A stretch of DNA of 64,000 nt from an uncultured Candidatus Micrarchaeota archaeon (GTDB lineage Archaea > Micrarchaeota > Micrarchaeia > Anstonellales > Bilamarchaeaceae), in contig CAVRPK010000004.1 in the NCBI GenBank assembly GCA_963723105.1, positions 4,765-68,764 of the forward strand. The letters run 5' to 3'. The notes below the pieces were generated by a model. The model was not told the origin of the DNA. It saw only the letters and a program-made list of their open reading frames with translations, and did no database searches. Each line of letters opens with the position of its first letter. Positions within the stretch are counted from its first letter, which is position 1. Positions 7,108 through 60,859 of this stretch are shown piece after piece. The position numbers and the translations under genes were made by a program.

Positions 7108-9159
7108 ATGGATTTAATTGTTGCAGAAAAACCTAGGGTAGCGGAAAAGATTGCTAATGCTATAGGTGAATCGGTTAAGAAAAAGTCATACAAAGGAGTC
7201 TATTACTACGAGGCAAAAAGAAACGGGCAAGAGTTTATGGTTGCCCCAGCTGTTGGTCATGTTTATACTCTTGTTGAAAAAGAAAAAACCCGAGGTTACC
7301 CCATTTTTGATATAGAATGGGTGCCTGCTTATGAAGCATCAAAAGAAGCAGCATATACCAAAGGCTATGTAGAGCTTATTCAAAAACTTGGAAAAAGCGC
7401 AGACACTTTCGTCTCAGCTTGCGACTATGATATTGAAGGAAGTACAATTGCATACAATGTATTTCGTTTTGCAACAACTATCCGCGAAGGACAGAGAATG
7501 AAGTTCTCAGCGTTGACTCAGGGAGATCTTGAAGCTGCTTATGATGACCGCGCGGAGTTTGATTATTCTAATGCATATGCTGGTGAAGCAAGGCACATAA
7601 TTGACTGGTATTATGGTATCAATTTAAGCCGGGCTCTTATGGGAGCTCTTCGTGCTGCTCATAGATATAAAGTCATGTCAGTCGGACGTGTTCAGGGACC
7701 TGCACTTTCTCTTTTATCTAATTTAGAATCAAGCATTCGTGCTTTTGTTCCAACTCCTTATTGGGAATTAATTACTAAAATCAAAGATGTAGATTTCAAG
7801 CACAAAAAAGATCGTTTCCTTGATGATGAATCCGCATCAATATCAATGGATAATACCAAGTCTACTGGAAAAGTTTCTAAGGTTGATAAAAAAGAGCAAA
7901 AGATTGCGCCGAACCCTAATTTCGACTTAACTGCTTTGCAGGTTGAAGCATACAAGCTTTTCAAATTCTCTCCATCAAGGACATTGGAACTTTCCCAGCA
8001 TCTTTACGAAGCTTCTCTAATTACTTATCCAAGAACTTCTTCAAATCAAATCCCATCATCGATCAAACTTGGTCCGATTCTGACTGCACTTGAAAAGAAC
8101 AAGGACTATTCAGCATTAATCAAAAAGATCAAAGCAAACAAATGGACAAAACCAATTCAAGGAAAGAAAAAAGATCCAGCACATCCTGCAATTCATCCAA
8201 CTGGCCAAGCTCCCGGTTCCATTGATCCACACCAAAAGAATCTCTATGATCTTATTGTCAAAAGATTTTTGGCATCATTTGCTACTCCTGCAAAGAGAGC
8301 TCGAAACAGAGTTGAAGTTGAAAGCGGCGGCGAGGAATATGCTGCATCTGGAAGCAGAATTGTAGAGCCTGGCTGGACTGAATTTTATGGAAAGTACTAT
8401 ACAACTGAAGATGTTGAGCTTCCTGAATTCAAGGAAGGAGAATCAGTGAAACTTTCCAAAGTGGAAAAAACAAAGAAAGAAACAAAACCACCAAAACGAT
8501 TTACTCAAGCTTCAATCGTTTCCGAACTTGAAAAAAGGCATTTAGGGACCAAGGCAACTCGTTCTGTGGTTGTTGATACGCTTTTCAAAAGAGGATATGC
8601 AGAAGGCAAATCCATTGAAGTGAGTGACTTCGGGCTTAAAGTATCTGATGTTCTTCAGAAATATGCCCCAGAAATCCTTGATGAGAATTTGACAAGATCA
8701 CTTGAAGAAAAAATGGAACTTATTCAAGCCGGCAAACTTGATAAGGAAGAAGTCATTAGTGAGTCTCGGGAGCTTCTGACTGGAATTCTTAATAAGTGGA
8801 AGAAAAACGAAGCAGAAATTGGTGCCAGTCTTCTTGATGCTCTTCAAACTACCCTGGAGCAGGAAAGCTTGGTTGGTCCTTGTGATAAGTGCGATAAGAA
8901 GCTTCGTATAATCAGAATGAAATTCAAAAAACAATTCATTGGTTGCCATGGATATCCAAATTGCAGAAATACCTATCCTCTTCCAACTGGCGCATATGTT
9001 AAGCCAACTGGAAAAGAGTGTACTGCTTGCAGCAAGCCAACTATAAATGTTAAAAAGGGCCGGATTAGATATACTATGTGTATTGATCCGAATTGTCCGT
9101 CAAAAGCAGATTGGCGCAAGAAGAGTGGTAGTCGCAATGAGAAAGATAGCAAATCATGA
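7108..9159 (+). CDS. topA: DNA topoisomerase IA (archaeal TopA/Topo III-like)
   Basis: TOPRIM N-terminus MDLIVAEKPRVAEKIA, acidic cluster ACDYDIEGS, catalytic-Tyr region LITYPRTSS, and C-terminal Cys4 zinc ribbons (CDKCDKK..CHGYPNC and CTAC..CIDPNC). Confidence 0.9.
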   Translation: MDLIVAEKPRVAEKIANAIGESVKKKSYKGVYYYEAKRNGQEFMVAPAVGHVYTLVEKEKTRGYPIFDIEWVPAYEASKEAAYTKGYVELIQKLGKSADTFVSACDYDIEGSTIAYNVFRFATTIREGQRMKFSALTQGDLEAAYDDRAEFDYSNAYAGEARHIIDWYYGINLSRALMGALRAAHRYKVMSVGRVQGPALSLLSNLESSIRAFVPTPYWELITKIKDVDFKHKKDRFLDDESASISMDNTKSTGKVSKVDKKEQKIAPNPNFDLTALQVEAYKLFKFSPSRTLELSQHLYEASLITYPRTSSNQIPSSIKLGPILTALEKNKDYSALIKKIKANKWTKPIQGKKKDPAHPAIHPTGQAPGSIDPHQKNLYDLIVKRFLASFATPAKRARNRVEVESGGEEYAASGSRIVEPGWTEFYGKYYTTEDVELPEFKEGESVKLSKVEKTKKETKPPKRFTQASIVSELEKRHLGTKATRSVVVDTLFKRGYAEGKSIEVSDFGLKVSDVLQKYAPEILDENLTRSLEEKMELIQAGKLDKEEVISESRELLTGILNKWKKNEAEIGASLLDALQTTLEQESLVGPCDKCDKKLRIIRMKFKKQFIGCHGYPNCRNTYPLPTGAYVKPTGKECTACSKPTINVKKGRIRYTMCIDPNCPSKADWRKKSGSRNEKDSKS

Positions 9160-13031: not shown

Positions 13032-13958
13032 ATGTCAGCAACTGGTTCTCAAGCTACCAAGAAATGTCCGGAATGCGGAAGCAAGAGAATAGTACGGGAT
13101 TATGAAAAAGGAGAGTTGATTTGTTCGCAATGCGGTCTTATTATCGCCGAAAATATCCATGATATGGGTCCTGAATGGCGTGCCTTTGATGCAGAACAAA
13201 AAGAGAAGAAAGCTCGAGGTGGAGCTCCAATCAAGTTCATGAGGCCAAACAAAGGTCTTGTTACTGAGATTGATCAATACAACCGAGATATTCGAGGAGG
13301 TAAGATCAGTCCCAAGAAACAGGCTCAGCTATATCGTATGAGAAAATGGCACAAGAGAGTCTCTATTGCAACTTCAATGGAAAGAAACCTGGTTATTGCT
13401 CTAGCTGAGCTTGACCGTGTGGCATCTTCATTGGGACTTCCAGAAAACATCAAAGAAAGCGCAGCACTTCTGTATAGGAGAGCTGTTAAGGAAGAACTCA
13501 TTCGAGGAAGACTTATTGAAAGCGTTGTTGCAGCAGTTATTTATGCTATATGCAGACTTCAGGGAATTCCAAGAACACTTGATGAAATATCTCGTGCATC
13601 TGGTATTGAGAAAAAGGAAATTGGGCGAGCATACAGATTCCTTAAGGCAGAACTTAAGATCGATGTTCCTCTAACTGACCCAGCTCAATATGTTCCAAAG
13701 TTTGCAACTGCACTTAAGCTTGGTCCTGAAGTTCAGGAAGAAGCAATTAAGCTGATCAAAAAAGCTCTTAAGAAAGGTCTTATCTCTGGCCGTGGTCCAA
13801 CTGGTGTTGCGGCAGCAGCACTGTACATTGCAAGTGCAATGCACGGAGAGAAAAAGACTCAGAAGGAAGTTGCTGATGTTGCTGGAGTGACTGAGGTTAC
13901 AATCCGAAACAGATACAGGGAACTTAAGAAAGAGCTTGGTCTCAAAGTTAATCTCTAA
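13032..13958 (+). CDS. tfb: Transcription initiation factor IIB (TFB)
   Basis: Zn ribbon CPECGS..CSQCG, a B-linker and two cyclin-fold repeats (LGLPENIKESAALLYRRA and LKLGPEVQEEAIKLIKKA). Start moved to ATG 13032 (MSATGSQ), preceded by GGGAGG (13019-13024) and ATTTTAAAAAT (12994-13004). Confidence 0.95.
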   Translation: MSATGSQATKKCPECGSKRIVRDYEKGELICSQCGLIIAENIHDMGPEWRAFDAEQKEKKARGGAPIKFMRPNKGLVTEIDQYNRDIRGGKISPKKQAQLYRMRKWHKRVSIATSMERNLVIALAELDRVASSLGLPENIKESAALLYRRAVKEELIRGRLIESVVAAVIYAICRLQGIPRTLDEISRASGIEKKEIGRAYRFLKAELKIDVPLTDPAQYVPKFATALKLGPEVQEEAIKLIKKALKKGLISGRGPTGVAAAALYIASAMHGEKKTQKEVADVAGVTEVTIRNRYRELKKELGLKVNL

Positions 13959-13959
13959 A

Positions 13960-13978
13960 TTTTTTTCTTTATTTTCTA
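13960..13978 (+). terminator. Oligo-T archaeal terminator after tfb
   Basis: A T7 run starts 2 nt after the TAA stop and is followed by further T-tracts (tttttttctttattttc). Confidence 0.4.
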
Positions 13979-13997
13979 ATTTTTCAGTTGTGGTCTT

Positions 13998-14225
13998 ATG
14001 CAGATATTTCCGAAAAAATTCGATAAAAAGGAATGGCTTGTTCTGATTGTTGCATTTCTAATTAACTCAACTATTTTTGCAGTACTTGAATATGGCTATG
14101 GGATTCGATTAGAATTTGGTGTGATATTGAATGTTGTAATAAAAACATTAATTCTGGTTCTTGTTACCTATCCTGTTGTTCGTGGGATCTACCTTCGCTT
14201 GGATCTTGCTAGATTTCTCAAGTAA
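13998..14225 (+). CDS. Small membrane protein (75 aa, 2 TM)
   Basis: The ORF has two clear hydrophobic helices (WLVLIVAFLINSTIFAVL and VVIKTLILVLVTYPVV). No homology recognised. Confidence 0.45.
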   Translation: MQIFPKKFDKKEWLVLIVAFLINSTIFAVLEYGYGIRLEFGVILNVVIKTLILVLVTYPVVRGIYLRLDLARFLK

Positions 14226-14227
14226 AG

Positions 14228-14491
14228 TTACTTTTTTGAGCGCAGCCTTGTTACTACGAATACGATTACTGACAGGATCAGGCTTGTTAGAGCAATTGCC
14301 CCTATCCAGGTATGCCTGATGTCGCATGGCGCCAGCATTAAAAGGCAATTCCAATCCCCTCCAAATATTATGGATGAGGGACAGCAATATTCTCCGGGCA
14401 GTGCATATACTTGTTTTGGAATTACTACATATCCTACAAATGCAACTGCTGAAGCAATTATCCAATAGTAAATCATTTTCATTTTTTCCAT
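14228..14491 (-). CDS. Small membrane protein (87 aa)
   Basis: N- and C-terminal TM helices flank a Cys-containing loop. Preferred over the overlapping 124-aa ORF 14148..14522, which lacks such features. Confidence 0.4.
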   Translation of the reverse strand: MEKMKMIYYWIIASAVAFVGYVVIPKQVYALPGEYCCPSSIIFGGDWNCLLMLAPCDIRHTWIGAIALTSLILSVIVFVVTRLRSKK

Positions 14492-14804
14492 GAAAACTAG
14501 TATGATTATGCTCCATTATCAAAATTATGAAATACTTCGGTCATTACCGTATCAGATTGATAAGTATCATCATAGAGTTCCAGGATCACTCCCAGCTCCC
14601 AAATTCTTACGAATTCGAGACTCTCAGTTTGTCGAACAATCATCACGTAATGATGAATTGTCTAAGAATGCTTTAAATATGGTCTATGGGTTTGGTTGGC
14701 ACATCTAACTAGAGCGAACAAAAGGACTGGAGAATGAGGATGCCATGACAAAAACTTAATAATCCTGATGATATATCTTGAGTAGACTTGACTCATGTGA
14801 TTCC

Positions 14805-15194
14805 ATGGCAGAAAAAAATCAACAAATCAATGCAAAAAAATTTTGTTTCAAATGTGGAGCAGAAATTTTTGAAGAAGCAGAGATATGTCCGAAATGCGGC
14901 GTAAGGCAATTTACACCAGTATCTGAAGTTAATGTAAGCTCAGTTACATCAAGCAGAGGTACTACGAGTCCAGGCATAGCTACGATACTAAGTTTTCTCT
15001 TTCCTGGTCTAGGTCACATTTATCTCGGAGATATATTCTTCGGATTAATAATTATGGTTTTATACGCTTGCTCGTGGGGCCTTGCCATTCTTACTGCTTT
15101 CATATGTTCTCCAATTCCCATACTCTTATGGCTTTGGTCCATGTATGATTCATATAATCTAGCACTAAAGATAAACAAAGGAGAAGTCGAATAG
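14805..15194 (+). CDS. Zinc-ribbon membrane protein (TM2-like)
   Basis: CFKCGAEIFEEAEICPKCG zinc ribbon, then two TMs with FLFPGLGHIYLGD. ATG 14805 is preferred over the TTG at 14778. Confidence 0.55.
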   Translation: MAEKNQQINAKKFCFKCGAEIFEEAEICPKCGVRQFTPVSEVNVSSVTSSRGTTSPGIATILSFLFPGLGHIYLGDIFFGLIIMVLYACSWGLAILTAFICSPIPILLWLWSMYDSYNLALKINKGEVE

Positions 15195-15204
15195 TACTTT
15201 TTTA

Positions 15205-15519
15205 TCATCCGTACTGGGTATCCTGCTCTACTGGCTTGGAATGAACTGGCTTTGGAAACAGAGACTGCACAAAAGTATTGACTTCATTGTGAAGGTTGAG
15301 GACTAGCTGCTGATATGTAAGGAAATCAGTCTTATCCAGTTTTGTATTAGACAATCTCATATTTCTTGTCTGAAGCGAAACTCCTTTCTCACTTACTTTC
15401 TTATCCTCAACATAACTAATAGTTGCAATATACGGAACTCCATTCAATTCCTTATCCAGCATTTTGTTTATCCTATCAATTCTTTCTTTAATCTCTTTTT
15501 TCTCTTCCATGATCTTCAC
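15205..15519 (-). CDS. Hypothetical protein (104 aa)
   Basis: ORF only, with a charged coiled-coil N-terminus. No motif recognised. Confidence 0.4.
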   Translation of the reverse strand: MKIMEEKKEIKERIDRINKMLDKELNGVPYIATISYVEDKKVSEKGVSLQTRNMRLSNTKLDKTDFLTYQQLVLNLHNEVNTFVQSLFPKPVHSKPVEQDTQYG

Positions 15520-15612
15520 CTTTTTTGAACTATGTGATTAGACTCATAATAATCTGCCACCAGTTAAAAACCGTACCGAAAGCAATAAAATCACGCAAGC
15601 GGTTTTCTACTT

Positions 15613-16554
15613 ATGAAAGCGCTTATCTTTGCGGAAGGCAATGGTTTTGGCCATGCTTCCCGCGATTCAATTATTTCAGAAAAATTCAATTTTCCTATCA
15701 TGACCTTTGGCAATGGGGCCCAATTCTGCAAAATGAATGATATTGATTTGATAGAAATTCCTGCTCCATACACTATCAAAAAAGTAAAAAACAGAGTCAA
15801 GATAGTAACAAATCCTGGGGAGATACTGAAGCTGGCGAGTCCCAAAACAATCCAATCAATCAAAGAGCATTTCGCAGATTATGATTACATCATCGTAGAT
15901 GGCTCTCCTCTTGGCCTGGCAATTTCTATGGCCATGAAAAAGAAAGCAATATACATCACCAATGATACCTCATCCTTGGTTGGCATCAATGGAAAAGTTT
16001 CAAAAAAAGTTGCAGCTTCTCTATATAATCAAATATTATCCTATCCGGAAAAAATAGTTATTCCTGATTTTTCTCCTCCGCTTACAGTAACTTCAAAAAA
16101 TCTAAATCCAAACCTTCCGATGGTTTTCAGCGGACCACTCGTCAAGAAAAGAAAACAAATCTCTCATAAAAAGAAAATCATAGTTGCAGGAAGGCTTGAA
16201 GAAGAGCTTCGGCCATTTCTTGGAGATGATGCACTATATGGGAATACTGTGGAACATCTAAGTTCTTACTATCGGGACTGCGAAGTTGTAATATGCCATG
16301 GTGGACACACAACAATCATGGAAGCTCTTTCATTTGGAAAACCTGTCATTGTTATTGAAAACTCAAAGCATACTGAGAGATACAACAATGCACTGGTTCT
16401 TGAAGAAAAAAATGTTGGAATTGTTTTAGAAAAATACATTCTCACAAGAGAAAGCCTGCATTCTGCAATTGAATATGCAAAAACCCTGGATCACTCAAGA
16501 CTTTCATTATACAAAAAACAATCAAAACCAAATCTGGATGTTTTTTCTCTTTAG
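15613..16554 (+). CDS. GT-B glycosyltransferase (MurG/GT28-GT1-like, archaeal MJ1255-type)
   Basis: N-terminal EGNGFGHASRD and C-terminal ICHGGHTTIMEALSFGKPVIVI nucleotide-sugar binding motifs. Confidence 0.7.
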   Translation: MKALIFAEGNGFGHASRDSIISEKFNFPIMTFGNGAQFCKMNDIDLIEIPAPYTIKKVKNRVKIVTNPGEILKLASPKTIQSIKEHFADYDYIIVDGSPLGLAISMAMKKKAIYITNDTSSLVGINGKVSKKVAASLYNQILSYPEKIVIPDFSPPLTVTSKNLNPNLPMVFSGPLVKKRKQISHKKKIIVAGRLEEELRPFLGDDALYGNTVEHLSSYYRDCEVVICHGGHTTIMEALSFGKPVIVIENSKHTERYNNALVLEEKNVGIVLEKYILTRESLHSAIEYAKTLDHSRLSLYKKQSKPNLDVFSL

Positions 16555-46858: not shown

Positions 46859-46982
46859 CGCCTCGGGGAGGATTCGAACTTCCGGCCTGCTGATGTCTGT
46901 AACTGAATAATCAGTTTTGATCCAACTTTTTCCAAAAGTTGGAATAACAGTCAGCCGCTCTAACCAGCTGAGCTACCGAGGC
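46859..46982 (-). tRNA. tRNA-Asn(GUU) with 50-nt canonical (37/38) intron
   Basis: The minus strand reads GCCTCGG-TA-GCTC-AGCTGGTTA-GAGC-G-GCTGA-CTGTTA. The intron follows at 46895-46944. The 3' exon is A-TCAGC-AGGCC-GGAAG-TTCGAAT-CCTCC-CCGAGGC-G. There is one A:C mismatch in the T stem. Confidence 0.8.
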
Positions 46983-52499: not shown

Positions 52500-53396
52500 A
52501 TGCTCAATGATATCATTATGGCAATTGGAAACACTCCACTAGTCCGAATCAATAAACTGACTCCAAATCCAAAAACAACCATATATGCTAAACTAGAAGG
52601 TTTTAATCCAACTGGAAGTATCAAAGATCGTATTGCTTTGAAGATGATTGAACAGGCAGAAAAAAACGGAGATTTATCAAAAGGAAAAACAATACTTGAG
52701 CCTACTTCTGGAAACACTGGAGTTTCACTAGCAATGATAGGAACTGTCAAAGGTTATGATGTTGAAATTGTCATGAACAGTGCAGTTTCTATTGAAAGGC
52801 GCCAAATGATCCGTGCATTCGGTGCTAAAGTAACTTTGACAGACAGTGACCTTGGAACTGATGGTGCGATTCTAAAAGCCAAAGAACTAGTCAAAAAATA
52901 TCCCGATAAATATTTCATGCCAGATCAGTTTTCTAACGAATACAATAAACTGGCTCACTACAAGACTACTGCCGAAGAAATCTGGAAACAGACAAATGGG
53001 AATGTGGATTATCTGGTTTCATCAATTGGAACATCTGGGACAATAATGGGAGTCGGAAGATATCTGAAAGAAAAAAATCCAAATGTTAAAATTGTTTGCG
53101 CGCACCCTGTCAAGGGCCACTATATCCAGGGCTTGAAAAATATGGATGAGGCAATAGTTCCATCTATTTATGATCCTTCTAAAATTGACGAAACTATCAT
53201 GGTTGAAACTCATGTTGCATTTGAAACTGCGAGAAAAATCGTGAGAAATGAAGGGATTTTTATTGGAATGAGCAGCGGAGCAGCAATGTATGCTGCAATT
53301 GAAATTTCAAAGAAAGCAGAATCTGGAAACATTGTAGTTATATTCCCTGATAGGGGAGAGAAATATCTGAGTACTGGTTTATTTGAAGTAGATTAA
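52500..53396 (+). CDS. cysK: Cysteine synthase / O-acetylserine sulfhydrylase-family PLP enzyme
   Basis: PLP lysine in NPTGSIKDR, plus EPTSGNTG and GMSSGAA. Start moved to ATG 52500. Confidence 0.8.
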   Translation: MLNDIIMAIGNTPLVRINKLTPNPKTTIYAKLEGFNPTGSIKDRIALKMIEQAEKNGDLSKGKTILEPTSGNTGVSLAMIGTVKGYDVEIVMNSAVSIERRQMIRAFGAKVTLTDSDLGTDGAILKAKELVKKYPDKYFMPDQFSNEYNKLAHYKTTAEEIWKQTNGNVDYLVSSIGTSGTIMGVGRYLKEKNPNVKIVCAHPVKGHYIQGLKNMDEAIVPSIYDPSKIDETIMVETHVAFETARKIVRNEGIFIGMSSGAAMYAAIEISKKAESGNIVVIFPDRGEKYLSTGLFEVD

Positions 53397-53812
53397 ACAT
53401 CTAATATTACGGATGCCTTCCATCCTTCTTCCGTTTTTTCGAGTTTGTACATGTGCCAGCTTACTGCTTTAACATCTGTTATCCATTCATGCTTCTCTTG
53501 ATCCAATTCCTCTCCGACTAGTTCTGCTTCAAGTGAATTTCCTGTGATCTTAATTGTATATTTACTAAAAACAAGACATTCGGAATCCTTGTAAAATAGC
53601 AATTCCTGCATGAAATTATGCAACAACCTCTCACGGTCTTTTCCAGAAATCGATATTTTTTTTGTTATTTTTTCTTCTATTGTTTTAAGGTCATCAACCA
53701 TTGAAGCTGTAACTGCTTTTGCGGCACTCTCAAAGAGCTCTTCAAGAGTGTTTCCTGTTGCTTCGAAAGTGACGTCTGCAATTGCGACTCCGTCAACAAA
53801 TTTATATGGCAT
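53393..53812 (-). CDS. Archease (RtcB activator)
   Basis: MPYKFVDGVAIADVTFEATGNTLEELFESAAKA is the archease N-terminus. Start moved to ATG 53812, immediately after the rtcB stop. Confidence 0.85.
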   Translation of the reverse strand: MPYKFVDGVAIADVTFEATGNTLEELFESAAKAVTASMVDDLKTIEEKITKKISISGKDRERLLHNFMQELLFYKDSECLVFSKYTIKITGNSLEAELVGEELDQEKHEWITDVKAVSWHMYKLEKTEEGWKASVILDV

Positions 53813-53813
53813 T

Positions 53814-55271
53814 TTATCCCTTGATATTTCCAATTGGAATAAGCTTTGCAACTTTCTTTGAAATTCCAGCACTAGTTGCAGACTCAATGACTTCGTCTAT
53901 TTTTTTGTATGCTCCGCCTGCTTCTTCTGCCAAACCTTTGAATGATACTGCTTTGATGTAAATTCCTTTTTTCTCCATGTCCTTTTGGAGTTGTTCTCCC
54001 TGATATGTCCTTTTTGCCTGAGCTCTGCTCATAACTCTTCCAGATCCGTGTGCTGTTGTGAACCAAGTATCTGCTGCATTATCCACGCCAGCAAGAAGCC
54101 ATGAACCTGTTTCCATACTTCCTCCAATGAGTATTGGCTGTCCATCCTCACGGTATAACTCTGGAATTTCTTCTCTTCCTGGACCAAATGCTGCAGTTGC
54201 ACCTTTTCTGTGGACTATGAGTTCTTTCATCTCTCCATTAACATTGTGCTTTTCAACTGAAGCGCGATTATGGCATATATCATATATCTGGTGCATTTCA
54301 AGTTCTTCTGCGCTTTTTCCAAACACATTTGCAAATGTTTCTCTAACTCCATGTAATATCGTCTGCCTGTTTGCAAATCCCATGTTTACTGCACAGTTCA
54401 TAGCTGAGAAATAATCCTGCCCTTCTTTTGATTTGAATGGGGCGCATGCAAGTTCTCGATCAAGAATTTTTATCCCGTATTTGCTTTGCATAACATCCAG
54501 GAATAAGTCTAGATAGTCTGATGCAACCTGGTGGCCAAATCCTCTGCTTCCGCAGTGGAACATAATAACTACCTGATCAGGAAATAATCCCCATTTTTTT
54601 GCAAGTTCGCTGTTTTCTATATTCTCTTCTTTGACATGCTGTATCTCAAGGTAGTGATTTCCTGAGCCAAGCGTTCCAACCTGCCCAAGTCCTCTTTTTA
54701 TTGCTTTTTCGCTTACCTTACTTGAATCAGCATTTTCAACAGAACCTTTCATTTCAGTTCTCTCAAGGTCTTCCTCCCATCCAAGTCCTTTTTCAATACA
54801 CCATTTTGAGCCTTGTTCCATCACCTGCTTGAATTCCTGCGGAGAAAGTCTCATTTTACTTTTTCCGCCAACTCCTGCAGGTATCCTCCTAAACAATGTG
54901 TCAACTAGTTCATGGAGTTTGGGTTTAACCTCATCAATTGTCAGATTGGTTCGAATAAGTCTCATACCGCAGTTGATATCAAATCCAATCCCGCCTGGGC
55001 TAATGACTCCCTCTTCAGTATCCATTGCAGCAACCCCGCCAATCGGGAACCCATACCCCGAATGTCCATCTGGCATACAATATGCATAATTGACAATTCC
55101 AGGAAGTGTTGCAACATTTGTTATCTGATCATAAACATGATCGTCCATCTGATCAAGAATTTTTTTGCTTGCAATGATTCTGGCAGGAACTCTCATTCCT
55201 TGTTTGTAATCCTTTGAAATTTCCCAAATATAATCACTAATTTTTGTGAACTGTGGTTTTTTGAAATCCAT
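53814..55271 (-). CDS. rtcB: RNA-splicing ligase RtcB
   Basis: MPDGHSGYGFPIGG, CGSRGFGHQ and TTAHGSGR (guanylylated His region). 485 aa with no intein. Confidence 0.95.
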   Translation of the reverse strand: MDFKKPQFTKISDYIWEISKDYKQGMRVPARIIASKKILDQMDDHVYDQITNVATLPGIVNYAYCMPDGHSGYGFPIGGVAAMDTEEGVISPGGIGFDINCGMRLIRTNLTIDEVKPKLHELVDTLFRRIPAGVGGKSKMRLSPQEFKQVMEQGSKWCIEKGLGWEEDLERTEMKGSVENADSSKVSEKAIKRGLGQVGTLGSGNHYLEIQHVKEENIENSELAKKWGLFPDQVVIMFHCGSRGFGHQVASDYLDLFLDVMQSKYGIKILDRELACAPFKSKEGQDYFSAMNCAVNMGFANRQTILHGVRETFANVFGKSAEELEMHQIYDICHNRASVEKHNVNGEMKELIVHRKGATAAFGPGREEIPELYREDGQPILIGGSMETGSWLLAGVDNAADTWFTTAHGSGRVMSRAQAKRTYQGEQLQKDMEKKGIYIKAVSFKGLAEEAGGAYKKIDEVIESATSAGISKKVAKLIPIGNIKG

Positions 55272-58751: not shown

Positions 58752-58962
58752 GCTCCTGTAGTCTAGTGACCTTTTTGACTTACGTCCTTCTAAGGGCAAA
58801 AATCTCAACCAAAAAGCCCTGAGGAAAACGAGTCAAATGGTTGGACATCCCGGTCAAGGATATCAGACTCTCAGCAAACTTTTAGGAAAAGTTTGATCAA
58901 AACTAATTAGCTAAAAGTTTGAGGGAACTCTGAGGACCCGGGTTCGAATCCCGGCGGGAGCA
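58752..58962 (+). tRNA. tRNA-Glu(CUC) with two introns (D-loop and canonical 37/38)
   Basis: Exon 1 is GCTCCTG-TA-GTCT-AGT, followed by an 82-nt intron at 58768-58849. Exon 2 is CCGGTCAA-GGAT-A-TCAGA-CTCTCA, followed by a 54-nt intron at 58874-58927. Exon 3 is C-TCTGA-GGAC-CCGGG-TTCGAAT-CCCGG-CGGGAGC-A. The mature tRNA is 75 nt. Splice boundaries are good to about 2 nt. Confidence 0.75.
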
Positions 58963-60640: not shown

Positions 60641-60859
60641 TTAGAAGTAGATCAAAACTCCCAGTATCCCATGGATCATGGCAAAAATTATTCCTACTGC
60701 TGCCAGACGAGAATGCCATTCAAAAGGAATTCTTCGTATGCCTCTTTTGTTCAGAATGGCAACTGCAGCAGAAAGCAGGATAAAAAATAAAGTAAATATG
60801 CCAAGATACATTATCAGAGGCTTGCCTAAGATCTGGAAATATGTTATTTCAGTTAACAT
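60641..60859 (-). CDS. Small 2-TM membrane protein downstream of the cytochrome b5-like gene
   Basis: Two hydrophobic helices with His residues (FEWHSRLAAVGIIFAMIHGILG). 11-nt overlap with the upstream gene. Confidence 0.45.
   Translation of the reverse strand: MLTEITYFQILGKPLIMYLGIFTLFFILLSAAVAILNKRGIRRIPFEWHSRLAAVGIIFAMIHGILGVLIYF

Follow-up and report, generated by a model that had tools for sequence, protein, structure and literature searches.

Why do the canonical introns of two tRNA genes for different amino acids, lying 12 kb apart, contain nearly the same hairpin? The question is raised by a 64-kb stretch of an uncultured Micrarchaeota genome (64,000 nt of contig CAVRPK010000004.1, referred to here as the window), in which only two tRNA genes were detected, for tRNA-Asn(GTT) and tRNA-Glu(CTC), both carrying the hairpin. 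The original prediction, which pointed out the resemblance, offered two explanations: either spread of the intron among tRNA genes, or the presence in it of a functional module, RNA or protein-binding, on which selection acts. What the two introns have in common is a copy apiece of a discrete, palindromic unit of 29 nt that is present in very many copies across Archaea and Bacteria. The simplest account covering all of its contexts is that of a non-autonomous palindromic repeat that survives wherever it is harmless, and we put at roughly 55% the probability that the unit is a small, selfish DNA repeat of this kind, tolerated in archaeal stable-RNA genes as removable introns.

The 29-nt unit and its occurrence in Archaea and Bacteria

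The unit consists of a 9-bp, A/T-rich hairpin closed by a C-G pair and followed by the tail AUCAAAAC; its consensus is C-N-AACTTTT, a loop of 2-3 nt, AAAAGTT-N-G and then ATCAAAAC. Both window introns open with the unit, and their copies differ by a single compensatory pair, which is C-G in tRNA-Asn and A-T in tRNA-Glu. When re-read directly, the intron sequences proved to be as transcribed in the original prediction, both lie at position 37/38 as it had stated, and its figure of about 30 identical positions in 35 was reproduced (29/33 by local alignment, 30/35 when the outer C is counted). Chance similarity of this size had been roughly estimated there as very unlikely; the alignment score of 46 was reached by none of 5000 shuffles (best shuffle, 26), and a 23-nt core pattern occurs twice in the window where 0.01 occurrences are expected. 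A covariance model of the unit (R1) was searched against the window with filters off, and the next match after the two intron copies scored 15 bits. Free-standing copies were absent from the 64-kb window in this search but are present in other genomes, including Methanobrevibacter. The junction of hairpin foot and tail (GUUGG-AUCA), together with the purine-rich loop (46914-46942, minus strand), recalls small-subunit rRNA at helix 45 and its 3' tail (...GGUUGGAUCACCUCC), which may be a coincidence.

The distribution of the unit was examined by two exact-pattern scans, one of genomes (one per GTDB species, 596 Gb, 22 fixed bases) and one of metagenomes (3-nt loops only), each of which returned at least 120 loci. 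By our own arithmetic, about 0.3 chance matches would be expected in the genome scan. Taxonomy of metagenome-assembled genomes (MAGs) follows the depositors' labels, and metagenome contigs, which carry no taxonomy, were taken as archaeal only where their tRNA or rRNA genes indicate it. The archaeal matches among those listed lie in six Micrarchaeota MAGs, Methanocellales, Methanophagales, Methanovirga and Methanobrevibacter. In Micrarchaeota orthologs the unit is found in tRNA-Asn introns (loci L040 and L041) and a tRNA-Glu intron (L089), and further unit-bearing introns occur in a Methanocellales tRNA-Lys(CTT) gene (L022) and another Micrarchaeota tRNA gene (L026). In a tRNA-Glu(TTC) gene (L090), the unit is on the opposite strand and abuts the 3' splice site. 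Methanogens also carry intergenic copies, and in a Methanobrevibacter MAG free-standing copies lie directly past stop codons. The original prediction had reasoned that absence of the module from related genomes and other tRNA introns would point to a recent local duplication; the opposite was found.

Bacteria contribute most of the genome-scan matches among those listed, with hosts including dozens of gut Clostridia MAGs, an Aminicenantes MAG, Anaerolineae, Deferrimicrobium and the cultured isolate Desulfatibacillum alkenivorans DSM 16219. Here the unit is a multi-copy intergenic repeat: one Aminicenantes MAG accounts for about 40 copies among the matches listed, and Clostridia MAGs have several within 8 kb. 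It is thus a short palindrome with many dispersed intergenic copies per genome, as are repetitive extragenic palindromic (REP) sequences and miniature inverted-repeat transposable elements (MITEs), while the window itself has only the two intron copies. Many copies in the genome scan are situated at contig ends, a location typical of repeats that break assemblies. The bacterial unit is preceded by one or two GC-rich hairpins that differ in sequence among lineages, so that copies have a common tail end and lineage-specific sequence on the other side, and conservation stops three T's beyond the 29-nt unit, at ...GATCAAAACTTT. Relative to flanking genes, no orientation bias is seen at the genome-scan loci, most of which are bacterial.

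Across some 250 copies the unit is sharply delimited and strictly paired. Of 257 copies, 251 have the closing C-G pair even though the search pattern did not include it, and the bases flanking the unit are near random, giving a sharp 5' boundary and, in the metagenome copies, sharp boundaries at both ends. At the variable stem pair, 209 copies have A-T, 24 have C-G and 20 have G-C, with only four (~2%) that are not Watson-Crick. A model-based alignment gives 99.6% pairing in the stem, with changes on both sides in three of the nine pairs, and a covariation score that none of 500 shuffles reached. No recurrent protein family was found near the unit in an all-against-all BLAST of flanking open reading frames (ORFs) from about 250 copies of both data sets, which speaks against a linked integrase, TnpA or TnpB gene, and the genes that were sampled among those ending within 45 nt of the unit are ordinary housekeeping genes. 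Searches of Rfam, at gathering scores and at relaxed E-values, gave no family, and the unit sequence turned up in the searchable literature in a single, unrelated paper. Inverted pairs of units were seen at two loci (L024 and L059).

In archaeal contigs, the unit is associated with stable-RNA genes. A canonical T-arm lies within 200 nt of 25% of metagenome copies, compared with 1.1% of control positions, and by this count unit and tRNA share a strand in 14 cases and lie on opposite strands in 17. For tRNA genes called by ARAGORN, the unit is on the tRNA strand in 12 and on the other in five, a count that includes the window tRNA-Asn and leaves out the window tRNA-Glu (same strand), which was read by hand. 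Unit-bearing introns are present in at least ten tRNA types (Asn, Glu, Lys, Ala or Gly, Ile, Phe, Met, Cys, Gln and Thr). Ten metagenome copies fall within tRNA genes called by ARAGORN as Ile, Phe, Asp, Met (two), Cys (two), Gln, Thr and Gly, some of these isotypes being unreliable; the 'Asp' gene of L165, for example, aligns as a tRNA-Asn ortholog. Removing all copies by virtual splicing before running ARAGORN gave a tRNA for 40 of 251, and the resulting isotype and position calls were too noisy to be used.

Non-canonical positions are also occupied. The D-loop introns of L192 and L213 begin with the unit, a T-loop intron in L245 carries it, and the L213 tRNA has two unit-type introns, like the window tRNA-Glu. 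In L248 (~1520-1552) the intron is AG plus the 29-nt unit, and by eye the tail bases CAAA pair with UUUG of the anticodon loop; ARAGORN calls this gene tRNA-Cys, and by our own reading it is Ala(TGC) with a G3-U70 pair. The tRNA-Phe intron of L152 (~7620-7700) is made up of two head-to-head units with complementary tails. At L227 and L249 the unit directly abuts the 5' ends of complete tRNA genes (Rfam). One copy is part of a 49-nt insertion in an archaeal 23S rRNA gene (L162, contig Ga0213870_1013111, 1866-1914), in the 5' domain at about model position 67, and this may be an rRNA intron of the same type.

Several features of the bacterial and metagenomic copies are recorded here. In the Aminicenantes MAG CSMAG_1899 (DAOWCY01; L023, L027 and about 30 other loci) the unit sits within a repeat of ~55-130 nt, laid out as GCCTCCGGCGGCCCTGCCGGGGGC, the unit and an optional AATCAAAAGCGCTCAC... 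part, and sometimes in tandem at ~132 nt. At the bacterial loci L020-L139, the tail end is often 3-45 nt past the stop codon of an opposite-strand gene (37 cases, compared with 18 in which a same-strand gene ends near the hairpin side), and several Oscillospiraceae copies have GTGCGAACA about 15 nt beyond the tail. Metagenome sub-families with conserved sequence after the tail (L154, L164, L166, L176, L230, L247 and others) show ...cggaaaacggcgtgatcaaccggcgcaacggttg after a degenerate second unit, a GTGC...GCAC hairpin followed by GTGCGAAGG, or a GTGCTATC...GATAGCAC hairpin, which suggests a mosaic of hairpin units. Tandem arrays were found in L194 (550-724; five copies, period 35-38 nt) and L212 (2056-2174; three copies, period 45 nt), with short, near-identical linkers that are not CRISPR-like. 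The complete unit is present in two IMG/VR contigs classed as viral (L007, 1933-1959; L013, 4112-4140), one of the two copies lying between the replication-initiator and terminase genes of a tailed phage; the other 17 matches of the viral scan look like chance 17-mer matches. Records of cultured phages and plasmids gave no phage match and one weak plasmid match.

Position of the unit relative to the splice sites

The two window genes were checked as tRNA genes (Table 1). The tRNA-Asn gene was detected by Rfam at 55 bits with a 51-nt insertion after position 37, and by ARAGORN, with introns allowed, as tRNA-Asn(GTT) with a 50-nt intron. Removal of the intron leaves 74 nt that fold into a cloverleaf and are called as a tRNA by ARAGORN. 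For tRNA-Glu, the original prediction was right about the canonical intron but missed the start of the gene at 58752 and a second, 81-nt intron in the D-loop. With both introns removed, a normal 76-nt cloverleaf is obtained that ARAGORN calls as tRNA-Glu, the acceptor halves GCTCCTG/CGGGAGC are complementary, and the ortholog in L089 has an identical exon/intron architecture. The D-loop left after removal of the 81-nt intron is AG-TCCCGGTCAA, which we take to be typical of archaeal tRNA-Glu. A model with three introns, the extra one of 15 nt at position 26/27, received a slightly higher ARAGORN score and was rejected, because the putative intron TCCCGGTCAAGGATA is presumably the usual D-loop sequence of archaeal tRNA-Glu and is kept in both L089 and L213. 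ARAGORN in default mode reported no tRNA in the 64-kb window, and Rfam at its gathering score called tRNA-Asn only; tRNA-Glu was overlooked by both because it has two introns, one of them in the D-loop. The window D-loop intron can be aligned with that of L089, which contains GAAACTTTG...CAAAGTTTC-ATCAAAAC, a degenerate hairpin-plus-ATCAAAAC unit. Decay has gone further in the window, where, judging from sequence, the D-loop intron may be a decayed intron of the unit type.

Archaeal introns of this class are recognized by a bulge-helix-bulge (BHB) motif, and two 3-nt bulges separated by a 4-bp helix can be read from the sequence of both canonical introns, compatible with the predicted folds; all BHB structures given here are predictions. 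In tRNA-Asn, CUGU of the anticodon loop is predicted to pair with ACAG near the 3' end of the intron, with bulges UA|U and AC|A. The unit hairpin is lengthened by one U-A pair and begins at intron base 2, and the tail bases AAC pair with downstream sequence in a second hairpin. In tRNA-Glu, the predicted central helix is CUCU/AGGG with bulges CA|G and AA|C, and the hairpin again begins at intron base 2. The compensatory change of C-G to A-T reported in the original prediction is present, but the preserved hairpin that it described is not the minimum-energy structure in tRNA-Glu: in a fold of the anticodon arm plus intron, the 5' arm pairs with a second copy of the 3' arm at 58911-58921 instead of with the adjacent one, forming an 11-bp closing helix and a strict helix-bulge-helix-bulge-helix motif. 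The D-loop intron shows only a relaxed motif. The hairpin starts one base past the 5' splice site and so would provide the intron-side helix of the 5' bulge, and in both genes the 5' arm of the unit is predicted to form the helix that flanks this bulge. The remainder of each intron is tRNA-specific and pairs with the local exon. Inside introns, the hairpin side is always toward the exon and the tail points inward.

The window tRNA-Asn is nearly identical to a gene in a Micrarchaeota MAG (L040), and the tRNA-Glu ortholog (L089) is from a Micrarchaeia MAG, both pointing to Micrarchaeota, a DPANN lineage whose members are very small archaea, as the most likely source of the window. In four tRNA-Asn(GTT) genes (window, L040, L041 and L165) the intron is at the identical site. 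The unit has been kept about as faithfully as the exons, and it is the rest of the intron that diverges. The second hairpin of these introns is kept by compensatory changes, being CAAAC/GTTTG in L041 and CCAAC/GTTGG in the other three.

Table 1. Coordinates of the tRNA genes, introns, units and associated features in the window.
Feature	Position	Strand	Details
tRNA-Asn(GTT) gene	46859-46982	minus	Exon 1, 46945-46982; intron, 46895-46944; exon 2, 46859-46894
tRNA-Asn canonical 37/38 intron	46895-46944	minus	50 nt; from sequence and fold
tRNA-Asn unit	46914-46942	minus	CCAACTTTT-GGA-AAAAGTTGG-ATCAAAAC; hairpin 46922-46942, tail 46914-46921; R1 50.4 bits, E=3e-13
tRNA-Asn intron, other parts	46901-46916; 46897-46900		Second hairpin; ACAG strand of the central 4-bp helix (the intron also holds the unit and the 3' bulge)
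tRNA-Glu(CTC) gene	58752-58962	plus	Two introns; exons 58752-58766, 58848-58873 and 58928-58962
tRNA-Glu non-canonical D-loop intron	58767-58847	plus	81 nt; inserted after G15; boundary ambiguous by 1 nt
tRNA-Glu canonical 37/38 intron	58874-58927	plus	54 nt; from sequence and fold
tRNA-Glu unit	58875-58903	plus	CAAACTTTT-AGG-AAAAGTTTG-ATCAAAAC; R1 52.5 bits, E=6e-14
Second copy of the 3' arm, CTAAAAGTTTG	58911-58921	plus	Can pair with the 5' arm of the unit, closing the BHB motif; L089 equivalent, CAAAAGTTTG
RtcB tRNA-splicing ligase	53814-55271	minus	Pfam RtcB, E=8e-168
Archease	~53393-53887	minus	

The window has a G+C content of ~39%, and its genes include those for TFB, topoisomerase VI subunit B, and RtcB followed by archease, a set that marks it as archaeal. 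The RtcB/archease pair lies between the two intron-bearing tRNA genes, and archease also adjoins RtcB on an independent contig. No EndA gene was found within the 64-kb window. A 1.6-kb region (13958-15613) lacks any ORF of at least 150 aa and gave no Rfam match at gathering score.

Origin of the unit

If the unit is a selfish repeat, as we favour, it would multiply at the DNA level in the manner of REP sequences and MITEs, with the factor that moves it encoded at some other place in the genome. In bacteria only intergenic copies would persist, and in archaea also copies within tRNA and rRNA genes, because there the unit could be excised from the RNA as a BHB intron. Archaeal stable-RNA genes would tolerate it because the hairpin, one base past the 5' splice site, supplies the helix that the endonuclease requires. 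The hairpin would serve as the helix beside the 5' bulge. The rest of the intron, which is specific to the tRNA and would have been acquired or adapted on the spot to make the motif complete, would pair with the anticodon loop and so yield the 3' bulge and the central 4-bp helix; cleavage by EndA and rejoining of the exons by RtcB with archease would follow. What the data show is the anatomy, distribution and covariation of the unit, the lack of a linked gene and the geometry at the splice sites; insertion at the DNA level, the direction of events (the unit seeding introns) and actual splicing are the steps that we infer. The scheme fits the broad substrate specificity reported for the three-unit EndA of Micrarchaeota (PMC3239211). 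A more specific version, which we advance tentatively and would place short of even odds, is that this single 29-nt element is the vehicle that creates new BHB introns in archaeal tRNA and rRNA genes by bringing a ready-made splice-site helix, with a widely distributed factor recognizing the hairpin and the GATCAAAAC tail and copying or maintaining the unit. As to the two explanations in the original prediction, spread between tRNAs is supported by the many tRNA types, positions and both orientations, and by the copies in a 23S rRNA gene, beside complete tRNA genes and in bacteria, but it is not the whole intron that is shared, and the mover would be the 29-nt unit. A functional module under selection finds limited support in the exon-like conservation and covariation, but a strand-specific RNA function is difficult to square with the occurrence of the unit on either strand and in bacteria.

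Several points weigh against a selfish repeat. None of the loci yielded a transposase, a target-site duplication, terminal inverted repeats or an empty site, and the case for mobility therefore comes from the distribution of the unit alone, and a length of 29 nt is below that of any self-transposing element known to us. Near-identity across two domains needs a conserved factor that recognizes the unit, and none was identified. Counts and taxon proportions are lower bounds and biased toward the consensus sequence, because both scans used exact patterns. The hairpin-to-exon, tail-inward layout in introns could reflect selection for splicing and not the mode of insertion. Conservation at the level of the exons in orthologs suits a neutral relic less than it does sequence-specific selection, or else gene conversion between copies, and keeps alive the rival explanation of a functional RNA or protein-binding motif.

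That rival holds that a conserved protein, or the splicing endonuclease, binds the hairpin and AUCAAAAC tail, and that the motif aids folding or splicing or has a role after splicing, for example in a stable circular intron RNA. Besides the four tRNA-Asn orthologs, in which the unit is conserved like the exons and the remainder diverges, it can draw on the strict Watson-Crick covariation of the stem, the fixed distance of 0-2 nt from the 5' splice site, and the partial pairing of the tail with the downstream intron, which is kept by compensatory changes. We nevertheless judge it unlikely, though deserving of real weight, since in at least five tRNA introns the unit is on the opposite strand, where the RNA would have GUUUUGAU before the hairpin and no tail after it, since it occurs in bacteria in any orientation relative to genes, and since it has neither C/D boxes nor an Rfam match. 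We also know of no bacteria that splice introns of the BHB type. Alternatively, the unit could be the terminal hairpin-plus-tail of a single-stranded DNA or rolling-circle transposon family (IS200/IS605, IS91 or Helitron-like), the copies being remnants of ends or minimal derivatives mobilized in trans. Such families have subterminal hairpins of this sort, and IS200/IS605 is found in both domains. The hairpin followed by a conserved tail of 8-11 nt, the abrupt end of conservation in bacteria, the common tail end with a lineage-specific other side, and the frequent location beside other hairpins and within hairpin-rich tRNA genes would all suit a transposon end. It becomes improbable when set against the lack of any TnpA, TnpB or Rep-like gene that recurs in the 3 kb around some 250 copies, of a second similar hairpin that could be the other end, and of a conserved target tetranucleotide outside the unit; in addition, both boundaries are sharp in the metagenome copies, unlike the result of shortening from one end.

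Two simpler explanations were refuted. A recent local duplication or gene conversion between the two introns of this genome, of no wider meaning, might be expected of copies 12 kb apart with 86% identity over 35 nt, but it is rendered very improbable by the presence of the unit at the same place in Micrarchaeota tRNA-Asn and tRNA-Glu orthologs and at more than 240 unrelated loci. Chance resemblance of A/T-rich, low-complexity hairpins has in its favour the low complexity and overlapping palindromes of the unit, and the 10-mer GATCAAAACT is by itself at chance level in the window (12 matches with up to one mismatch, 10.9 expected), occurring at 60650 without a hairpin; for the unit as a whole the probability is negligible, given the 5000 shuffles, the 0.01 expected occurrences of the 23-nt pattern, and scores of 50-52 bits where the next match has 15.

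A number of other identities were considered for the unit and rejected. A C/D box small RNA was dismissed because neither intron has a C box (RUGAUGA), the CUGA of tRNA-Asn is CUAA in tRNA-Glu, and no Rfam small nucleolar RNA matched. An IS200/IS605-derived element or TnpB guide RNA would call for tnpA or tnpB, and no such cluster was present among the flanking ORFs of about 250 copies, the sampled neighbours being housekeeping genes. A CRISPR array does not suit copies that are mostly single, nor tandem periods of 35-45 nt that are irregular or too short, with near-identical linkers. As a coding sequence, the frame KLLKKFDQNF is broken by a stop in variants with a GT loop and shifted by 3-nt loops. 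Promoters and intrinsic terminators were rejected from the wrong spacing of a -10-like box, the lack of a U-tract after the GC-rich hairpins and the absence of orientation bias; half-sites of the Hin/Gin invertases, the IHF consensus, and the FNR and CodY boxes were mismatched in spacing or phylogenetic range.

Comparison with known systems and significance

The closest precedent is provided by the paralogous or 'transposed' tRNA introns of Thermoproteales (Fujishima et al. 2010, summarized in PMC4090602), where, according to that summary, similar introns occur in tRNAs for different amino acids, in canonical as well as non-canonical positions, and gain at the DNA level was inferred by a mechanism that is unknown. 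As far as that summary describes them, the introns studied here are like those of Thermoproteales in the similarity between tRNAs for different amino acids, which amounts to 30/35 over the unit, extends to at least ten tRNA types and does not go beyond the unit, and also in their predicted removal by protein enzymes at a BHB motif, as with archaeal BHB introns in general. Set beside the same account, they differ in that only a 29-nt unit is common and not the whole intron, in that the hosts are Micrarchaeota, other DPANN archaea and Euryarchaeota, and in that copies of the unit are also found outside introns, within a 23S rRNA gene and among bacteria. To our knowledge, such non-intron, rRNA and bacterial copies have not been reported for the Thermoproteales introns.

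Among bacterial repeats, REP sequences with their derivatives, bacterial interspersed mosaic elements (BIMEs) and REP doublets forming hairpins (REPINs), are short, imperfect palindromes with a conserved single-stranded extension, present in many extragenic copies, often just past stop codons. They occur singly, as inverted doublets or in clusters mixed with other hairpins, and contain no gene. The unit resembles them as a short palindrome with a conserved tail, many extragenic copies and no internal gene. REP families, however, are species- or genus-specific and co-occur with a RAYT transposase gene, whereas the unit is nearly identical across phyla and both domains, with no associated gene found; we know of no REPs within tRNA or rRNA genes. 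The palindromic elements of Rickettsia, which are selfish repeats, are like the unit tolerated inside functional genes, including those for RNAs, but they are 100-150 nt long, confined to one genus and retained in the product, while the unit has 29 nt and is predicted to be spliced out.

The ends of IS200/IS605 elements, of palindrome-associated transposable elements (PATEs) and, at their 3' side, of Helitrons and IS91 have a subterminal hairpin about 10 nt from a sharp boundary and an affinity for DNA that forms hairpins. The unit is likewise a hairpin with a short tail leading to a sharp boundary, but it has a single hairpin type, no TnpA, TnpB or Rep gene nearby, and no conserved flanking target. 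CRISPR repeats of the type with a hairpin and an 8-nt handle are 28-30 nt in length, consist of a stem-loop plus 8-nt tail, and are of a sequence kind that is shared between the two domains. In size, stem-loop and a tail resembling AUUGAAAC or AUUAAAAC the unit is similar to these, but it never occurs in repeat-spacer arrays, and its tandem cases have no real spacers.

That a non-coding unit of 29 nt should be nearly identical in two domains is unusual in itself and calls for an explanation. There is also a practical consequence, in that standard tRNA finders overlook genes of this kind, as happened in the window with ARAGORN in default mode for both genes and with Rfam for tRNA-Glu. The gain of introns by archaeal tRNA genes is an open question, and the 2014 review describes the mechanism of their 'transposition' as unknown (PMC4090602). 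The present finding supplies a concrete, searchable sequence unit that marks newly colonized sites and also exists outside introns. Many small archaea have the unit in their tRNA and rRNA genes, and unrelated bacteria have it as a dispersed repeat, which makes it a candidate for the agent that spreads introns among archaeal tRNA genes.

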